In this document: positions 7,139 through 43,112 of the stretch, one piece after another
Layout: the number at the start of each line of letters is the position of its first letter
How positions within the stretch are numbered: position 1 is the stretch's first letter
Source: Bacteroidia bacterium
GTDB lineage: Bacteria > Bacteroidota > Bacteroidia > AKYH767-A > OLB10
Reading direction: 5' to 3'
DNA length: 44,011 bases
NCBI GenBank assembly: GCA_035275625.1
Contig: DATEMK010000564.1
Span: 1-44,011, forward strand
The notes under the pieces: model-generated
What the model was told of the DNA's origin: nothing
What the model saw: the letters and a program-made list of their open reading frames with translations, nothing else
Databases searched by the model: none
Translations under genes and position numbers: made by a program

Positions 7139-7201
7139 GTTTAGGGTTTAGCGTTTAAAGTTTGGGGTTAACTCTAAACCCTCAGCTCTAAACTCCAGAC
7201 A
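7139..7201. repeat. Nine phase-locked heptamers forming the asnS leader
   Basis: GTTTAGG GTTTAGC GTTTAAA GTTTGGG GTTAACT CTAAACC CTCAGCT CTAAACT CCAGACA. The two halves are imperfectly complementary. Confidence 0.85.
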
Positions 7202-13205: not shown

Positions 13206-15614
13206 ATGTTTTTATTTATTTCAAAGTTCATTTTACGCAATCGGATTCCACTACTTATTTTCATGTCAGTGATAACGGCTTTTTTTGCTTACCAGGCAAC
13301 CAAAATTCAGTTAAGCTATGATTTTGCAAAAGTGCTGCCCGAAACGGATAAGTATTTTATCGAATACGAAAAATTTAAGCGGCAGTTTGGTGAAGATGGC
13401 AGCGTGCTTGTGATTGGAGTGAAGGATAAAGATTTTTTTCAGCTCAAAAAATTCAATGAATGGTTTACTCTCGGAAACGAAATAAAAAGCATTGACGGCA
13501 TTGAAGCGGTGGTTTCAGCAGCCAATATTTACAACATCACAAAAAATGAAGAAGCAAAAAAGTTTGATGTAAAACCGCTTGTCACGCACACACTGAGCTT
13601 GCAGCGGGAAGTAGACAGCATCAAAAATATTTTGGATCATCTTGTATTTTACCAGGGGTTTATCATCAACAAAGAAACAGATGCAACATTGATGGCAATC
13701 ACTTTTGACAAGAAAAAATTAAATACCAAAAACCGGATAGAAATTGTAAATATCATCAAAGAGAAAGCGCTGGCTTTCGGTAAGTCAAATAATGTGGAGG
13801 TTCATTTATCTGGCTTGCCATATATCAGGACTGCTGTGACAAAAATGGTGTCGGATGAACTTAAATTGTTTTTACTGCTCGCTCTCGGAGTTTGTTCTGT
13901 CATCCTTCTATTCTTTTTTAAAAATGTCCGGGTAGTTTTGTTTTCGCTTTTAGTCGTGATTGCCGGAGTAGTATGGTCTCTCGGCACATTATCTTTAATG
14001 GGATTCAAGATAACTATTCTTTCCTCTCTCATTCCTCCGCTGATCATTGTTATCGGAATTCCCAACAGCATTTTTTTTCTGAATAAATATCACACAGAAT
14101 ATCGCCTGCACCGGAATAAAATAAAAGCGCTGCAGCAAATGGTGCAGCGGATAGGGCTTACAACTTTTCTGGCCAATACAACATCAGCCATCGGCTTTGG
14201 TGTTTTCTATTTTACAAACAGCAATATATTGATGGAGTTTGGATTAATTGCGGCTATCAATGTAATGTCCACTTACCTGATCTCTTTAATTTTAATTCCG
14301 ATTATGTTCAGCTTTTTGCCTGCGCCTTCCATTAAGCATACAGAACATTTGCAGGGGAAAAAAATAAGCTTCCTTTTAGAATCCATTGACAAATGGGTTC
14401 ATCATAAAACAAAAATTATTTATGCTGTTGTGATTGCATTGCTGCTGGTTTCTTTTTATGGCATGAGCAAGCTGAATACGATAGGATATGTGGTGGATGA
14501 TCTTCCCAAAAAAAATCCTGTGTATCTTGATTTGAAATTTTTTGAAAGCAATTTTCACGGAGTGCTGCCTTTTGAAATTTCAATTGACGCTAAAGAAAAA
14601 GGCAAAGCGCTTCAGCATGTCACCTTGCAAAAAATAAACCGGCTTACCAAAGAATTAAATACGCATGCAGAATTTGCAAAACCGCTTTCAGTTGTTGATA
14701 TTATCAAATTTGTCAACCAGGCATACAATGACGGTGAGCCGAAATATTATATTTTACCGGGAAGCATTGAGTTAGGGCAGATCGCTGAATACCTCGGAGA
14801 AATGAAAAATAAGCAAAGCATGTTTCGTTCATTTATTGACAGCACGAAACAAATCACCCGTGTGAGTGTGCAAATGGCAGATGTTGGTTCCGTGCGAATG
14901 AAACAATTGGTGAATGAGCTCAAACCAAAAATTGATTCTATTTTCCCCCCGGCTAAATACAAAACAACCATTACCGGCAACAGCCTGATCTTTTTGAAAG
15001 GAAACGATTACCTTTTTACAAATCTTTTGGAAAGTGTTTTCCTTGCCATCTTTTTAATTTCAATCATTATGTTTCTTTTGTTTATGTCATTCCGCATGAT
15101 AGCTCTCAGCATTTTACCGAGCGTGATCCCTTTATTTATTACTGCCGGACTGATGGGTTATTTTCATATTCCTTTAAAACCTTCTACCATACTTATTTTC
15201 AGCATTGCATTTGGAATTGCCTCAGACGGAACCATTTATTTTCTTACAAAATACAGGCAGGAAATGCGTCATAAGCACATGAGCATTTCAAAAGCGGTTT
15301 CACTCACCATTAAAGAAACGGGAGTAAGCATGATCTACACTGCAGTGATTTTGTTTGCAGGATTTTTTATTTTCACGGCTTCCAGCTTTGGGGGGACTGC
15401 ATCGCTGGGTGTTTTAATTTCAATAACTTTATTGGTTGCCATGTGTTCCAACTTAATTTTGCTTCCTGCATTTCTTATTTCGCTTGAAAGAAAAATGACT
15501 ACCAAAGCATTCCTGCAGGAGCCGTTGTTACAATTTCTCAATGAAGACGAAGATATTGAGCTTGATGAGTTGGAGATAAGGAAGAACGAAAACACAGTAA
15601 ACAGTAAACAGTAA
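13206..15614 (+). CDS. RND-superfamily exporter of the MMPL/HpnN-like type
   Basis: 802 aa, with two blocks of about 6 TM helices each preceded by a large soluble loop. Sterol-sensing-like TM block. Confidence 0.8.
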   Translation: MFLFISKFILRNRIPLLIFMSVITAFFAYQATKIQLSYDFAKVLPETDKYFIEYEKFKRQFGEDGSVLVIGVKDKDFFQLKKFNEWFTLGNEIKSIDGIEAVVSAANIYNITKNEEAKKFDVKPLVTHTLSLQREVDSIKNILDHLVFYQGFIINKETDATLMAITFDKKKLNTKNRIEIVNIIKEKALAFGKSNNVEVHLSGLPYIRTAVTKMVSDELKLFLLLALGVCSVILLFFFKNVRVVLFSLLVVIAGVVWSLGTLSLMGFKITILSSLIPPLIIVIGIPNSIFFLNKYHTEYRLHRNKIKALQQMVQRIGLTTFLANTTSAIGFGVFYFTNSNILMEFGLIAAINVMSTYLISLILIPIMFSFLPAPSIKHTEHLQGKKISFLLESIDKWVHHKTKIIYAVVIALLLVSFYGMSKLNTIGYVVDDLPKKNPVYLDLKFFESNFHGVLPFEISIDAKEKGKALQHVTLQKINRLTKELNTHAEFAKPLSVVDIIKFVNQAYNDGEPKYYILPGSIELGQIAEYLGEMKNKQSMFRSFIDSTKQITRVSVQMADVGSVRMKQLVNELKPKIDSIFPPAKYKTTITGNSLIFLKGNDYLFTNLLESVFLAIFLISIIMFLLFMSFRMIALSILPSVIPLFITAGLMGYFHIPLKPSTILIFSIAFGIASDGTIYFLTKYRQEMRHKHMSISKAVSLTIKETGVSMIYTAVILFAGFFIFTASSFGGTASLGVLISITLLVAMCSNLILLPAFLISLERKMTTKAFLQEPLLQFLNEDEDIELDELEIRKNENTVNSKQ

Positions 15615-15650
15615 ACAATTGGTCAACCTCAAACTTCAAACCTCAAACCT
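15595..15650. repeat. Eight phase-locked heptamers spanning the MMPL stop codon and the rfbA leader
   Basis: CAGTAAA x3, CAATTGG, TCAACCT, CAAACTT, CAAACCT x2. It ends 3 nt before ATG 15654. The MMPL TAA stop (15612-15614) lies inside the third CAGTAAA. Confidence 0.9.
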
Positions 15651-15653
15651 TTT

Positions 15654-16514
15654 ATGAAAGGCATTATCCTCGCAGGTGGTTCCGGCACACGGCTCCACCC
15701 TTTAACACTTGCCATGAGCAAACAGCTCATGCCCATCTATGATAAGCCGATGATTTATTATCCTCTTTCTGTGCTTTTGATTGCAGGAATCAAAGAAATT
15801 CTTATCATTTCCACCCCCCATGACCTTCCTCATTTTAAAAAACTGCTTGGTGATGGGAAAAATTTAGGCTGTGATTTTCAATACGCAGAACAGTCCGTTC
15901 CGAATGGCCTGGCACAGGCATTTGTGATCGGTGAAAAATTTATCGGGAAAGAAAAAGTGGCTTTAATTCTTGGCGATAATATTTTTTACGGAACAGACAT
16001 GGCTGGGCTTTTACAAAGAAATAATGATCCGGAAGGGGGAGTGGTATTTGCCTATCATGTTTCCGATCCGGATCGTTATGGAGTAGTTGAATTTGATAAA
16101 AATAGAAAAGTTCTTTCCATAGAAGAAAAACCTAAGCAGCCTAAATCAAATTATGCAGTTCCGGGATTATATTTTTATGATAACGATGTGGTGGAAATTG
16201 CTAAAAATTTACAACCAAGTCCGCGCGGAGAATATGAAATTACGGATGTTAACAGAGAATATCTGAAAAGAGGCAAATTAAAAGTAGGAATACTCGGGCG
16301 CGGAACTGCCTGGTTAGATACAGGTACATTTGCTTCACTGATGCAGGCCTCACAGTTTGTATATGTAATCGAAGAAAGGCAGGGATTAAAAATCGGCTGC
16401 ATTGAAGAAATAGCCTACCGCATGGGTTTTATCACCCTTGAACAATTGCGTGTATTAGCGCAGCCGTTAGTCAAAAGCGGGTATGGAGCATACTTGCTAA
16501 AAATTACAGATTGA
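15654..16514 (+). CDS. rfbA: Glucose-1-phosphate thymidylyltransferase
   Basis: [11 protein letters not shown] nucleotide-binding motif and full-length similarity to RmlA/RfbA as recalled. Confidence 0.95.
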
Positions 16515-16522
16515 TGGAGATT

Positions 16523-16662
16523 GTTATTAGTTATTAGTTATTAGTTATTAGTTAATTGTTAATTGTCAGTTACTGGTTGTCGGTCCTGAATTGTGAATTG
16601 TGAATTATAAATTGTACTTTGTACTTTGTAAATCTTAAATCGTATATCTTAAATCATACATC
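16523..16662. repeat. Twenty heptamers in perfect register, filling almost the whole rfbA-epimerase spacer
   Basis: GTTATTA x4, GTTAATT x2, GTCAGTT, ACTGGTT, GTCGGTC, CTGAATT, GTGAATT x2, ATAAATT, GTACTTT x2, GTAAATC, TTAAATC, GTATATC, TTAAATC, ATACATC. AAAAAG and ATG 16669 follow. Confidence 0.95.
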
Positions 16663-16668
16663 AAAAAG

Positions 16669-17610
16669 ATGGAAAATAAAATTTTAGTAACGGGCGGGGC
16701 AGGTTTTGTCGGAAGCAGCCTTGTAGAAAAGCTGGCTGAAAACAAAAATAATTTTGTAGTAATTGCAGATAACATGCAAACAGGTACCCATGCAAAGATC
16801 CCCAAAGCAAAACTTGAAAATGTGCGTTTTATTAAAGCCGATGTAAATTACTTCAAGGACATTTCGAGTATTTTCTTTGCTCACCAGTTTGATTATGTTT
16901 TTCACTATGCCGCTCTTGTGGGGGTAAAAAGGACGCTTGCCAATCCCGCTTTGGTATTACGCGACCTGGAAGGAATTAAAAATATTCTTACGCTTTCTAA
17001 AAACACAGGCGTAAAGAGAGTGTTTTATTCTTCCTCCTCTGAAGTTTACGGAGAGCCTGTAGAGTTTCCTCAAAATGAACACACAACTCCTCTTAACTCA
17101 CGGTTGCCTTATGCAATTGTGAAAAATGTTGGAGAAGCATATCTCCGTGCATTCAAACAAGAATACGATTTAGATTTCACCATCTTTCGTTTCTTCAACA
17201 CTTACGGACCAAAGCAGAGTAATGACTTTGTAATGTCCCGGTTTCTGCATGCTGCCATACACAATAAAGACATTACTATATATGGTGATGGAATGCAGAC
17301 ACGTACCTTCTGCTATATTGACGACAACATTGATGCAACGGTGAATGCGTTTTATAAAAATAAATTTGTCAATGATGTGGTAAATGTTGGCAGCGACAAT
17401 GAAATCACTGTTCTTGATCTTGCGAAAAAAGTAATCAAGCTTGCTGACAGTAAATCAAAAATGATTCATCTTCCCGCATTAAAGGAAGGCGACATGACGC
17501 GAAGATGCCCTGACATTCACAAAATGAATAAGCTGCTTAACCGAAAAATGACCACGCTTGACGAAGGCATCAAAAAACTCATCAAATCATTCAGGCATAA
17601 TGAACATTGA
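16669..17610 (+). CDS. NAD-dependent epimerase/dehydratase (extended SDR; UDP-sugar decarboxylase/epimerase-like)
   Basis: GGAGFVGS Rossmann motif, SSSEVYG, and the YxxxK catalytic pair in PYAIVKNVGE. Confidence 0.88.
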   Translation: MENKILVTGGAGFVGSSLVEKLAENKNNFVVIADNMQTGTHAKIPKAKLENVRFIKADVNYFKDISSIFFAHQFDYVFHYAALVGVKRTLANPALVLRDLEGIKNILTLSKNTGVKRVFYSSSSEVYGEPVEFPQNEHTTPLNSRLPYAIVKNVGEAYLRAFKQEYDLDFTIFRFFNTYGPKQSNDFVMSRFLHAAIHNKDITIYGDGMQTRTFCYIDDNIDATVNAFYKNKFVNDVVNVGSDNEITVLDLAKKVIKLADSKSKMIHLPALKEGDMTRRCPDIHKMNKLLNRKMTTLDEGIKKLIKSFRHNEH

Positions 17611-30779: not shown

Positions 30780-31006
30780 CTCGGGGAAGAATGGTTTAAG
30801 GTAAGGTTTAAAGTTTAAGGTTTTCGGATCCTTGTGGATTTAAAATCCTTAAATAATTATTCTGAATGTGAATTTTTAAACCAAACCCTGATTATTTTTT
30901 TTAATTTTTTAATTTCCGGCTTAGAAAGTCGGCTAAAATAAAACAAAATTTAATACGAATACGAGTGAATGCGAACTGCATCTGCACGTTTTCACAGTGA
31001 ATTAGT

Positions 31007-31721: not shown

Positions 31722-32225
31722 GATCTGTTGAGCCCGCATGGCTTGCGATGGAGGTATTTTTATAATCACCTGCGCACTTTCTTTAATCACTTGTGACATT
31801 ACTGCAATCTGTTGCGCTCCCGCTGTGATCTGTTGTGACAAATTTGTAATCTGTGGTTTCCGCGCGGGGATCAACAGCCGCCTCGACACAATCAGTTGTT
31901 TATTTATTGCAATCACAGGTTCCTTTACGAAAATCAGTGGTTTGCTTTCCGAAATCAGAGGTTATCTCTCCTGGATTGCTGGTGTGCTTTAAGGAATCGT
32001 TGGTTGTCTTTACGGGGTTGGGGGTTCTCTCTCCGGGATCGTTGGCAGGCTCTTGGTGATTTTTAGTCGCCTTTCAAAAATTCGCAGTGTGCTTACGAGG
32101 ATGATGAGTTCCCTCTCCGGGATTCGAGGTGTGCTTTTGAAAATTCGTGGTGCCCCCGCGACAATTTGCGGCCACCTCGTGGAGATTGCTGGTAATTTCC
32201 TTGTGGGTGGAGGTGAGTTCTTGGT
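31722..32225. repeat. Array of 24 tandem 21-bp units in perfect phase (diverged, no indels)
   Basis: An RATY core (GATC/AATC/GATT/AATT) sits at 31722+21n for nearly every n from 0 to 22. Consensus is about RATCnnTGGTnnnCTYTCnnn. Confidence 0.9.
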
Positions 32226-32229
32226 TTGA
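31738..32229 (+). pseudogene. Conceptual heptad-repeat ORF (I-x-G/C/S-x-L-x-x, 22 heptads) interrupted by one TAA; coding status unproven
   Basis: ATG 31738 to TGA 32227-32229 is open except for TAA at 31990-31992. Synonymous-type variation occurs at the conserved Ile, Gly and Leu codons. There is no family match and the antisense frame is also largely open. Confidence 0.3.
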
Positions 32230-40569: not shown

Positions 40570-43112
40570 AAAATATCAGCGAATACGAATTAACAAACAG
40601 AACTTTGAACTTTAAACTTAACTCGTACATTGTAAATTGTACATCGTACATAATTAAAAAGTTTTTACTTGTCCTTTTTGGAATATTATTTTTTTCCACA
40701 ATAAGCAATGCGCAAACCTGGAGCATTTCGGGAAAAGTTATTGACGCCTTAACACGCGACCCGGTTGATTATGCGTATGTCACCGCAACGGGTGATTCAG
40801 CTTTTGCAGTTACTGATGCAGATGGAAACTATACCATATATATAAGCAGTTCTGCAAAGGCTATCGCTGTTTTAGCAGACGGCTATGCAAAATTTACCAT
40901 ACCGGTAAAAAATATTATCAGGATGACTCTGAATGTGGAGCTTACAGCCAATGCATCACGGGTGACAACTGAAGCAAATAAAGCAGGGGAGAAACCGGTG
41001 GAATATCTTGTGGAAAAAATAATTGAAAACAGGGATAAGAACGATCCTGTAAATAATGATTATTTCAGCTATCGCACGTATGAAAAAATAGAATTTGACC
41101 TTGCAAATGTTTCAGATAAGATCAAAGAAAAAAAAGTCATGAAACCGTTTGCATTTATTTTTGATAACATGGATTCCGTTACCACTAACGGGAAACCATT
41201 CCTGCCTTTCTTTTTTACTGAAACCCTTTCCGATGTATATTATGAGCATAAGCCAAAACAAAAGCGTGAAATAGTTATTGCAAGCAAAACAGCCGGGGTT
41301 GAAAACTTAACCCTGATTCAATTGCTCAAAGACATTTACCGCGACATAACAATTTATGATAATTACATCAATGTTTTCGGAAAAAGCTTTATCAGCCCTG
41401 TTTCAAATGAAGGGTTGAAACATTATGATTATTTAATCAGGGATACTACCATTATTGACGGGAAAACGTGTTATAAAATTATTTTTTCGGCAAAGAAAAA
41501 ATTCGATCTCACGTTTAATGGTGAGTTCTGGTTTCACGACACTACGTTTGCTGTTCAGCGCATCACTATGTATCTTAATAAAGATGCCATGATAAATTTT
41601 GTAGACGATTTTAAATTTGTAAAAGTTTTCAAAAATATTGATGACAATAAATGGGTGTCTGACCGTGAACAATTAGTGGTGCAGTTCTCCAACCGCGAAA
41701 AGGGAATGAGCATCATCGGGCGAAAATCACAATATTATGCAGACACAAAAATCAATCAGCCTCCGGCTGATTCAGTTTTCAAAATAACATCCACCATTCG
41801 TTTTGATCCAATGGCGTATGATCAGCCCAACAAGTTCTGGAGAGACGAACGGCTTGAAAAACTTACAGACCGTGAAAAAGATATATATGATTTAGTGGAC
41901 ACCTTAAAAAAACTGCCTGCATTCCAGATCTATGTAGGTTCGGTGGTGGTTGCATTAACCGGTTATGTGCCTTATGGCAAAATTGACTATGGCCCTTATT
42001 ATCATTTAATCACTAACAACACTTTAGAAGGAATCAGGTTCCGTTTTGGCGGGCGAACAAATGAAAAATTCAGCACGCGCTGGCAATTTGAAGGCTATGG
42101 CGCTTATGGCACATTGGACGGAACTTTCAAATACATGGGAGGGATACGTTATGCTATTAAAAGAAAACCTTTTAAGGCAATAGGCTTCCAGTATAAAAAT
42201 GATGTGGTGCAACCCGGCTTGTATGAAGGATATTTTAAAGACGAAGGATGGATTGTAATTTTATTTAAACGCAATCCTTCCGACAAAATGTGTAAAGTTG
42301 AATCTCAAAAAGTTTACTATGATGCAGCCTACCGTTCGGGATTGTCCTTTCGCCTGCAGTATCTTAAAAATCATTACACCACTGTTGGCAACATTAATTT
42401 TGATTATTATGCCAATGACAGCAGAACGATAATAAAAAATGATTTGCACACCTCGGAATTCTGGCTGAGCGCAAGATATTCTTACGGAGAAAAATTTATT
42501 GAAAAAAAATACAAGCGGTATTCGCTGGGTTCTGATAATCCTGTTTTCCAGCTAAACTACATAAAGGGTTTGAAAAATTTCCTGGATGGCGAATTCAGTT
42601 ATTCTAAAATTGCAGCGAGATTGACTGACAAGCTTAATTTATTTCCTTACGGACATTTGAATTATTCCTTTGAAGCGGGAAAAGTTTTTGGAAATGTTCC
42701 CTATCCGCTGCTGTATGTGCATCGCGGCAATGAATCGCGGCTTTTTGATTACACAGCATTTAATTTAATGAATCATTACGAGTTTGTTTCTGACAGGTAT
42801 GCAGGCGCAAGTGCTGAACATCATTTTGACGGTTTTGCTTTGCGCAGAATTCCATTGATAAGAAAATTGGACTGGCGCGAAATTGTTTCAGCCAGGATAT
42901 TGTTCGGCCATCTGTCACAGAAAAACAAAGAGATTTTATTTGATCCGGCTAATGTCTCTAACATACGTACCACACCCTATATAGAAGCCGGTGTTGGCCT
43001 TGAAAATATTTTGAAACTGATACGAATTGATGCGCTTTGGCGTTTAACCTATCTTAATAATCCCGTTGCGTCAAACTTTGGCGTACGTGCAAGCCTTCAG
43101 TTATTGTTCTGA
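40548..43112 (+). CDS. Carboxypeptidase-regulatory-like domain plus DUF5686-like outer-membrane-associated protein
   Basis: SGKVIDALTRDPVDYAYVT CarboxypepD_reg pattern after the signal peptide (I)KKFLLVLFGILFFSTISNAQ. The coordinates give the maximal ORF from TTG 40548, which overlaps the previous gene. The real start is probably TTG 40605, or ATT 40653 directly after the stutter leader. Confidence 0.78.
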   Translation: MGSAWGLKNISEYELTNRTLNFKLNSYIVNCTSYIIKKFLLVLFGILFFSTISNAQTWSISGKVIDALTRDPVDYAYVTATGDSAFAVTDADGNYTIYISSSAKAIAVLADGYAKFTIPVKNIIRMTLNVELTANASRVTTEANKAGEKPVEYLVEKIIENRDKNDPVNNDYFSYRTYEKIEFDLANVSDKIKEKKVMKPFAFIFDNMDSVTTNGKPFLPFFFTETLSDVYYEHKPKQKREIVIASKTAGVENLTLIQLLKDIYRDITIYDNYINVFGKSFISPVSNEGLKHYDYLIRDTTIIDGKTCYKIIFSAKKKFDLTFNGEFWFHDTTFAVQRITMYLNKDAMINFVDDFKFVKVFKNIDDNKWVSDREQLVVQFSNREKGMSIIGRKSQYYADTKINQPPADSVFKITSTIRFDPMAYDQPNKFWRDERLEKLTDREKDIYDLVDTLKKLPAFQIYVGSVVVALTGYVPYGKIDYGPYYHLITNNTLEGIRFRFGGRTNEKFSTRWQFEGYGAYGTLDGTFKYMGGIRYAIKRKPFKAIGFQYKNDVVQPGLYEGYFKDEGWIVILFKRNPSDKMCKVESQKVYYDAAYRSGLSFRLQYLKNHYTTVGNINFDYYANDSRTIIKNDLHTSEFWLSARYSYGEKFIEKKYKRYSLGSDNPVFQLNYIKGLKNFLDGEFSYSKIAARLTDKLNLFPYGHLNYSFEAGKVFGNVPYPLLYVHRGNESRLFDYTAFNLMNHYEFVSDRYAGASAEHHFDGFALRRIPLIRKLDWREIVSARILFGHLSQKNKEILFDPANVSNIRTTPYIEAGVGLENILKLIRIDALWRLTYLNNPVASNFGVRASLQLLF
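40600..40655. repeat. Eight phase-locked heptamers (GAACTTT to CATCGTA family)
   Basis: GAACTTT GAACTTT AAACTTA ACTCGTA CATTGTA AATTGTA CATCGTA CATAATT, followed by AAAAAG as at 16663-16668. Confidence 0.88.

Follow-up and report, generated by a model that had tools for sequence, protein, structure and literature searches.

A drifting heptanucleotide array in the rfbA-epimerase spacer of a Bacteroidota genome, probably a neutral product of slippage

The spacer between rfbA and a sugar epimerase gene in a Bacteroidota metagenome-assembled genome (5.45 Mb, 643 contigs, 38.7% G+C, with a T9SS sorting domain present) is occupied by a tract of 20 heptamers that share one register while the word itself changes. 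We interpret this tract, with a probability of roughly 0.7, as a neutral, slippage-generated heptanucleotide filler array of the STRR/LSSR class, most likely without a dedicated function. It lies in a 44,011-nt stretch of DNA that was analyzed as a whole (here called the window), between two coding sequences, as an earlier note on this DNA had placed it; Pfam identifies the flanking genes, both on the same strand, as rfbA and a NAD-dependent epimerase (Table 1).

We infer that the array grew in a spacer that was ancestrally about 10 to 20 nt long, between the co-oriented rfbA and epimerase genes. Slipped-strand mispairing or unequal exchange would have duplicated one or two 7-nt units per event, with point mutations building up between duplications. 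The perfect block of four GTTATTA units is presumably the youngest expansion, and the degenerate units would be older. The product is probably co-transcribed within the rfbA-epimerase messenger, where it would form a 154-nt intercistronic spacer, rich in U, poor in C, and without structure, and would serve as neutral or near-neutral filler without a sequence-specific function.

Register and internal anatomy of the tract

Re-parsing of the sequence divides positions 16523 to 16662 (140 bp) into 20 heptamers with zero insertions or deletions. The letters agree exactly with the 20 units listed in the earlier note, and the perfect register described there shows no phase break. The entire rfbA-epimerase spacer measures 154 nt, which is 22 x 7. 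Autocorrelation of the spacer reaches 0.72 at lag 7, 0.65 at lag 14, and 0.57 at lag 21, with the remaining lags at 0.2 to 0.35; within the tract, identity at multiples of seven is about 0.5 up to lag 105, compared with about 0.3 at adjacent lags. In the register of the earlier note, the heptamer consensus is G-T-n-A-w-T-y, with T6 present in all 20 units, T2 in 19, and G1 and A4 in 14 each. When each of six sub-blocks was rotated to a random phase over 20,000 trials and scored for column information, only 0.055% of the rotated versions equaled the observed value (p = 5.5e-4), indicating that a single register common to different words is statistically sound. Further, TRF called five overlapping period-7/14 arrays in the tract independently. 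All six frames hold stops, three to seven each, and the tract is outside any ORF, which agrees with its earlier description as noncoding.

The tract is made up of one perfect x4 block, three x2 blocks, one 14-nt two-unit duplication, and degenerate units, and identity within it decays as the distance between units grows. These blocks, the two-unit duplication, and the decay with distance fit the earlier proposal of repeated local duplication with mutation. That adjacent units differ by 1 to 3 bases, as had also been stated, is too narrow; the actual range is 0 to 5. The middle four units are far more degenerate than the rest, with 4 to 5 differences from their neighbors, and keep the register mainly through T2 and T6. 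These two columns are near-invariant and the other columns vary (chi-square on column counts, p ~0.004, a value inflated by inherited changes). Such near-invariance might reflect some constraint acting on the unit and counts against the slippage-filler reading.

Between the rfbA stop codon and the array, the bases GGAGATT are in register and match the array consensus at four of seven positions. They also resemble GCAGATT, which is found directly 5' of the ATG in a relative (G004). Speculatively, and from sequence likeness, GGAGATT may be the seed unit of the array.

Table 1. Features of the rfbA-epimerase locus and other repeats of the window and the genome (positions refer to the window unless a contig, C, or another locus, L, is given)
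Feature	Location	Strand	Basis or remark
AACCTCA/AACTTCA heptamer array, sense-oriented, AAACYTY family	15625-15650	+	TRF; ends 3 nt before the rfbA ATG
rfbA, glucose-1-phosphate thymidylyltransferase-type nucleotidyl transferase (upstream gene)	15654-16514	+	Pfam PF00483, E = 1.5e-72
Eight bases TGGAGATT between rfbA stop codon and array	16515-16522	+	
GTTATTA x4, perfect block	16523-16550	+	TRF; Logan contigs break here
GTTAATT x2	16551-16564	+	Heptamer parse
GTCAGTT ACTGGTT GTCGGTC CTGAATT, four degenerate units	16565-16592	+	Heptamer parse, phase test
GTGAATT x2, then ATAAATT	16593-16613	+	TRF, heptamer parse
GTACTTT x2	16614-16627	+	TRF, heptamer parse
GTAAATC TTAAATC GTATATC TTAAATC ATACATC	16628-16662	+	TRF period 14 x2.0, 92% matches (two-unit higher-order duplication)
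AAAAAG, A-rich, outside the repeat, immediately 5' of the start codon	16663-16668	+	
NAD-dependent sugar epimerase/dehydratase (downstream gene)	16669-17610	+	Pfam PF01370, E = 1.6e-51
AAAC[CT]T[CT] arrays in the window, examples	203-227, 7139-7169, 15625-15650, 30793-30823, 40600-40619		
MMPL transporter gene	13206-15614		
ACAGTAA x3.4	15594-15617		
21-bp phase-locked array	31722-32229		
TTGGTCA/GACCAAT arrays	C142:2343-2830, C200:1570-1794, C638:8831-9025, C501:523-691, C484:6313-6484, C391:1-105		About 15 more contigs
ATTCGT element, examples in this genome	C56:1331, C82:4580, C139:27492		
ATTCGT element, other loci	L082 (G001) ~1462, L149 ~1467, L154 ~877 and ~2487, L010 ~4045		
S23p genes in this genome	C336:5204-5509, C473:1039-1356, C89:4207-4512, C235:2821-3126		PF05635; four or five more

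Because the genome was assembled from metagenomic data into 643 contigs and short-read assembly is error-prone at repeats, the tract could in principle be an assembly or consensus artefact, absent as such from the organism. We consider this extremely unlikely. Two Logan contigs of run SRR5195143, an independent assembly, jointly match the tract at every base, and a k141 contig from ENA, reached by exact-protein look-up, is identical across 5.8 kb. Two further assemblies from different assemblers thus give the same sequence, which makes an assembler artefact unlikely; one of them is interrupted only inside GTTATTA x4, and the degenerate units are distinctive enough to be assembled without ambiguity. 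The two Logan contigs end and begin within GTTATTA x4 and overlap consistently by 28 nt. A break at this place is expected from the limit of 31-mers on a 32-nt periodic stretch, though a copy-number branch could also produce it. All assemblies retrieved by exact-protein look-up apparently belong to one and the same population. In metagenome contigs, a degenerate 30-mer from the 3' end of rfbA had no match, and a scan with the epimerase protein found relatives of at most 74% identity and no close strain.

Heptamer arrays across the genome and in known repeat classes

Tandem repeats in this genome are dominated by period 7. TRF reports 981 arrays of period 7, compared with 298 of period 6 and 598 of period 8, and strict lag-p segments number 319, 23, and 98 for the same three periods, with none in a Markov shuffle. 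The genome-wide scan for tandem 7- and 8-mers suggested in the earlier note returns hundreds of arrays, with period 7 in excess. About 73% of the high-scoring lag-7 windows sit in the 13% of the DNA outside long ORFs, and arrays of periods 5 to 24 cover 7.3% of noncoding DNA versus 1.1% of coding DNA; the gene calls behind these genome-wide statistics are crude longest-ORF calls.

The 319 period-7 arrays carry 108 different major units. Identity between units of the long arrays declines continuously with distance, being 0.86 for adjacent units and 0.73 for units eight apart, and a stepwise change of word like that in the tract is also seen in arrays on C211, C313, C431, and C320. Period-7 arrays are likewise present in sampled DNA from other genomes of the same order. 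In one of these genomes, which belongs to a different family, there are 11 period-7 arrays per 100 kb, among them composites such as AGTGAAC x3 / AGTGAAT x2 / AGCGAAT x4. Since other arrays drift in the same way, in-register drifting is their ordinary appearance, and the tract is not special in its genome. The constraint on period or length that the earlier note had proposed is accordingly not needed. Slippage or exchange changes whole units only, and point mutations keep the phase, so the register persists without selection on the period and phase-locking is the expected mutational outcome.

The preference for 7 nt is real and is visible already at the two-copy stage. In noncoding DNA, exact two-copy tandem duplications of 7 nt number 412 against 66 expected, with corresponding values of 215 against 18 for 8 nt and 322 against 191 for 6 nt. 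The share of these duplications that reaches at least three copies is 25% for 7 nt, 9% for 8 nt, and 0% for 6 nt. Both mutS and mutL were found in the genome, and we therefore rejected loss of mismatch repair as the cause of the arrays. Loops of more than about 4 nt are missed by MutS, and the presence of heptamer arrays despite mutS and mutL fits this limit.

TTGGTCA/GACCAAT, the unit also found in the Nostoc recO repeat, makes up the longest arrays of the genome, which reach 488 bp. Three tandem copies of TTGGTCA, allowing at most one mismatch, have 127 matches in this genome and none in the same-genus genome (G001). Across the family the same query is present in only 10 of 83 genomes and 3 of 23 genera, a patchy distribution like that published for TAACTGA. 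Cyanobacterial contamination was rejected as the source of TTGGTCA, because the gene next to the C200 array shares 90% identity with the same-genus genome.

Two further repeats were observed within the window. A repeat of ACAGTAA, x3.4, makes up the final codons and the stop of an MMPL transporter gene, where slippage would change the C terminus of the transporter. A 21-bp phase-locked array shows a lag-7 value of 0.25 versus 0.51 at lag 21. It has no 7-nt sub-period, and a link to the tract was rejected on that basis; it seems to be a separate phenomenon rather than a higher-order heptamer array.

The properties of the tract place it near previously described heptamer repeats. As summarized in PMC4679880, LSSR (Mrazek 2007) have units of 5 to 11 nt, with 7 nt the most abundant, are mostly intergenic and phylogenetically sporadic, and are attributed to polymerase slippage, with the 7-nt preference ascribed to the interaction between polymerase and template. 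Compared with that summary, this genome has the same period spectrum, whereas the tract is a strongly diverged mosaic and not a long homogeneous repeat. As far as can be told, the uncultured Bacteroidota family to which the genome belongs is outside the genomes of the LSSR survey. Like LSSR and STRR-like repeats, the tract consists of head-to-tail 7-nt units, is intergenic, belongs to a genome with a general excess of period 7, and has turned over rapidly. It does not have the features of a contingency-locus simple-sequence repeat, an inverted heptamer stem-loop or S23p cassette, or a known structured RNA in Rfam. The earlier statement that it is "not a simple microsatellite" holds in degree, given how degenerate the units are, but the tract still falls within a known class of heptanucleotide simple-sequence repeats.

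Cyanobacterial STRR heptamers are 7-bp tandem units located between operon genes or upstream of starts, with a putative function (PMC2670836), and the tract similarly consists of 7-bp tandem units between genes. It differs in the phylum of its host, in its units (GTTATTA, GTGAATT, TTAAATC, and others), which are not STRR units, and in that no hairpin potential was found in it. Its units depart from the canonical STRR units and its host is a member of the Bacteroidota, so that it is not an STRR in the strict sense. A second point of comparison is the intergenic heptamers, TAACTGA and others, that occur in Beggiatoaceae, cyanobacteria, and five Bacteroidetes, often directly 5' of starts (MacGregor 2015, PMC4679880). 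Repeats of the TAACTGA type consist of one heptamer, in forward orientation, a few nucleotides from the start; the tract stops 6 nt short of the ATG, but its units are idiosyncratic and not TAACTGA, and its polarity is opposite to that of the start-proximal arrays in its own genome.

History of the spacer among relatives

The order of rfbA followed by the epimerase gene is conserved across the family, and epimerase orthologues were found in all 31 genomes searched (this genome and 30 relatives). At 70 syntenic rfbA-epimerase loci, drawn from both genomes and metagenomes, the spacer has a median length of about 18 nt and is often shorter than 12 nt, which argues that the ancestral junction was tight, as is typical of operons. 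In the same-genus genome, the epimerase is 89% identical and the spacer is 87 nt long. Local alignment of the tract to this spacer gave p = 0.15 and unit sharing gave p = 0.17, and unrelated control spacers scored equally; we therefore rejected homology between the two. At the same junction in G009 and in the metagenome locus L146 there are heptamer arrays of unrelated units (TTTTAGT and TAGnnAA, respectively). As judged from these sequence comparisons, the tract is young and lineage-specific, and heptamers have expanded independently at this junction at least three times. Exactly this pattern of arrays versus short spacers has been described in Gramella and Aequorivita, whose spacers are filled by several heptamer repeats while close relatives with the same gene order have short, repeat-free ones (PMC4679880).

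The G009 spacer (locus L090) is about 457 nt long. It has TTTTAGT-type heptamers directly after the rfbA stop and, before the epimerase, about seven tandem copies of a unit of about 36 nt, GAACAAGGCTCACAGTGAACGTAACTAAGAACGAA.

Two other kinds of repeat were observed in the genome. The first is a dispersed intergenic element with the consensus ttATTCGTAAATTCGTA.a.ATTCGT.tTc.tTg, in which four ATTCGT hexamers are spaced 8/10/7. It is present in 97 exact copies, almost never inside ORFs; 54 of 91 copies have a same-sense start downstream, at a median of 29.5 nt, and the TAAATTCG part of the element differs from the Bacteroidota -7 box by a single mismatch. The second is associated with S23p/23S-rRNA-IVS-protein genes. 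The flanks of four of eight such genes align as inverted, largely heptamer-built arms with a local score of at least 25, and the flank score of a fifth (on C140) is just under this cutoff. Units of these arms include AGTAGAA/AGCAGAA, GGGTAAT, and ATGTACA.

These elements bear on whether the tract is itself a decayed mobile or dispersed element, either a former ATTCGT element or one arm of an S23p-type cassette with inverted heptamer arrays. The dispersed ATTCGT element (ATTCGTAAATTCGT) occupies the rfbA-epimerase spacer in the same-genus genome (G001), whose 87-nt spacer holds a copy, and in two distant lineages (L149 and L154); the tract itself has no TTCGTAAATTCG copy. Its units GTAAATC and GTTATTA are loosely like GTAAATTC and GTTATTC of the G001 spacer, although the similarity between the two spacers is not significant, as noted above. 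Half of the S23p genes do carry inverted heptamer-built arms, but the tract has no inverted partner array, the inverted pairs seen being weak, ascribed to chance, and over 1.6 kb distant, and there is no S23p gene near it, these genes being on other contigs. An origin from a decayed element is very unlikely in light of these comparisons.

Function of the tract and polarity of start-proximal arrays

Several searches for functional signals in the tract were negative. The predicted RNA fold is less stable than those of shuffled sequences (z = +1.14), no Rfam family matched the tract at E <= 1, and neither a terminator-like site nor a plus-strand promoter consensus of the sigma-70 type was found in or around it. 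In this genome the Bacteroidota -7 box, TAnnTTTG, occurs 334 times at 20 to 39 nt upstream of starts versus about 60 times per antisense bin, and the tract is without TAnnTTTG even when one mismatch is allowed. A minus-strand sigma-70-like site, TTTACA-17-TATAAT, was set aside because it points antisense into rfbA and is a product of the AT-rich repeat, and also because the promoters of the organism follow the TAnnTTTG pattern. The simplest reading is that the epimerase would still be transcribed from upstream and that the tract would be an untranslated intercistronic segment. Hundreds of comparable arrays adjoin genes of all kinds, and array density is 0.43 per kb in tandem spacers, 0.36 in divergent spacers, and 0.33 in convergent spacers. 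This near-equal density across spacer types argues against a general role as promoter, leader, or terminator.

Simple-sequence repeats in promoters and 5' untranslated regions underlie phase variation at the contingency loci of Haemophilus and Neisseria (PMC12721329). The tract resembles such loci in that tandem repeats lie beside a surface-polysaccharide-type gene and in having slippage as its probable mutational mechanism. Gain or loss of GTTATTA units might then alter promoter spacing or leader length and switch epimerase expression between cells. Sugar-nucleotide and surface-polysaccharide genes are a common target of phase variation, a perfect x4 block is present, and the Logan contigs break exactly in that block, which could mark a copy-number branch in the read graph, although the 31-mer limit accounts for the break equally well. 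Against this, there are no -33/-7 promoter elements in or beside the tract whose spacing it could set; four perfect units are a weak slippage substrate beside classical contingency loci; and a 7-nt step outside the coding region has no effect on frame. The tract is also one of a genome-wide population of arrays that is indifferent to placement, with hundreds of like arrays beside genes of every kind. Taken together, this makes phase variation at the locus highly improbable.

A subset of heptamer arrays does show a preferred orientation relative to genes. The AAAC[CT]T[CT] family comprises 103 of the 319 period-7 arrays, about a third, and reads RGTTTAA/GTTTGAR on the other strand. Beside gene starts its arrays are oriented with the A-rich strand as the sense strand in 55 cases and antisense in 21, and the median distance from the end of a sense copy to the start codon is 8 nt. 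Among the other start-proximal arrays, too, those with an A-rich sense strand predominate, by 81 to 31 (p = 2.5e-6) and, within 20 nt of the start, by 41 to 12; all of these polarity counts rest on crude longest-ORF gene calls. A diverged AAACCTC array is found at the same place before rfbA in the same-genus genome. These start-proximal arrays resemble the TAACTGA repeats of Beggiatoaceae (PMC4679880). The start-proximal polarity suggests that some heptamer arrays may be under selection as leaders, and the AAAC[CT]T[CT] family is a candidate Shine-Dalgarno-independent leader element, in a phylum whose translation starts without such pairing, or else reflects a mutational bias. Strand composition of the arrays in tandem spacers was rejected as evidence for RNA function, with C versus G unbiased and the excess of A over T mild; the stronger polarity is confined to arrays close to starts. 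The tract has an AT skew of -0.24 and a GC skew of +0.26 (T-rich, with G exceeding C), the polarity opposite to that of the start-proximal arrays; this, together with its unique units, places it outside the polarized subset.

The tract could nevertheless act as a functional leader or intercistronic RNA, or as a single-stranded DNA platform, for an OB-fold protein (CSP- or S1-like, at about 7 nt per monomer) that tunes translation or stability of the epimerase message, with initiation that does not rely on Shine-Dalgarno pairing. Six nucleotides separate it from the ATG and its RNA is predicted to lack structure, polarized start-proximal heptamer arrays exist in the genome, and the leader array of rfbA is itself kept, in diverged form, in the same-genus genome. 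Binding of TAACTGA repeats by S1, Csp, or Csr proteins has been suggested (MacGregor 2015, PMC4679880), and the same paper cites the binding of CspB at one heptamer per protein. In Nostoc, heptamer repeats lie upstream of recF and recO, and their deletion had modest effects on reporters, shifting recO promoter-reporter responses about two-fold (bioRxiv 10.1101/2022.06.06.494920). The tract, however, is polarized opposite to the start-proximal arrays of its genome and is built from idiosyncratic units, and it is not conserved even between members of its genus. Convergent spacers, which have no leader, hold arrays at about the same density, and a spacer of 20 nt or less suffices in most relatives. 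We regard a leader function for the tract as unlikely for these reasons. A broader proposal is that a process that takes DNA or RNA in steps of 7 nt, for example through an OB-fold cold-shock or S1-type protein or a property of the replicase, writes or maintains the heptamer arrays of this clade of Bacteroidota. Start-proximal arrays would then be Shine-Dalgarno-independent leaders with AAACYTY as their functional core, and the oppositely polarized, T-rich tract would possibly be repressive or insulating and uncouple the epimerase from rfbA. We view this proposal as distinctly unlikely.

The individual locus carries little weight, being one more, rather tidy, heptanucleotide array expanded in a bacterial spacer. 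Its value is that of a clean natural record of array growth, in which an operon junction that measures about 10 to 20 nt in most relatives has grown to 154 nt in one lineage and has been inflated independently, by unrelated heptamers, in two others.
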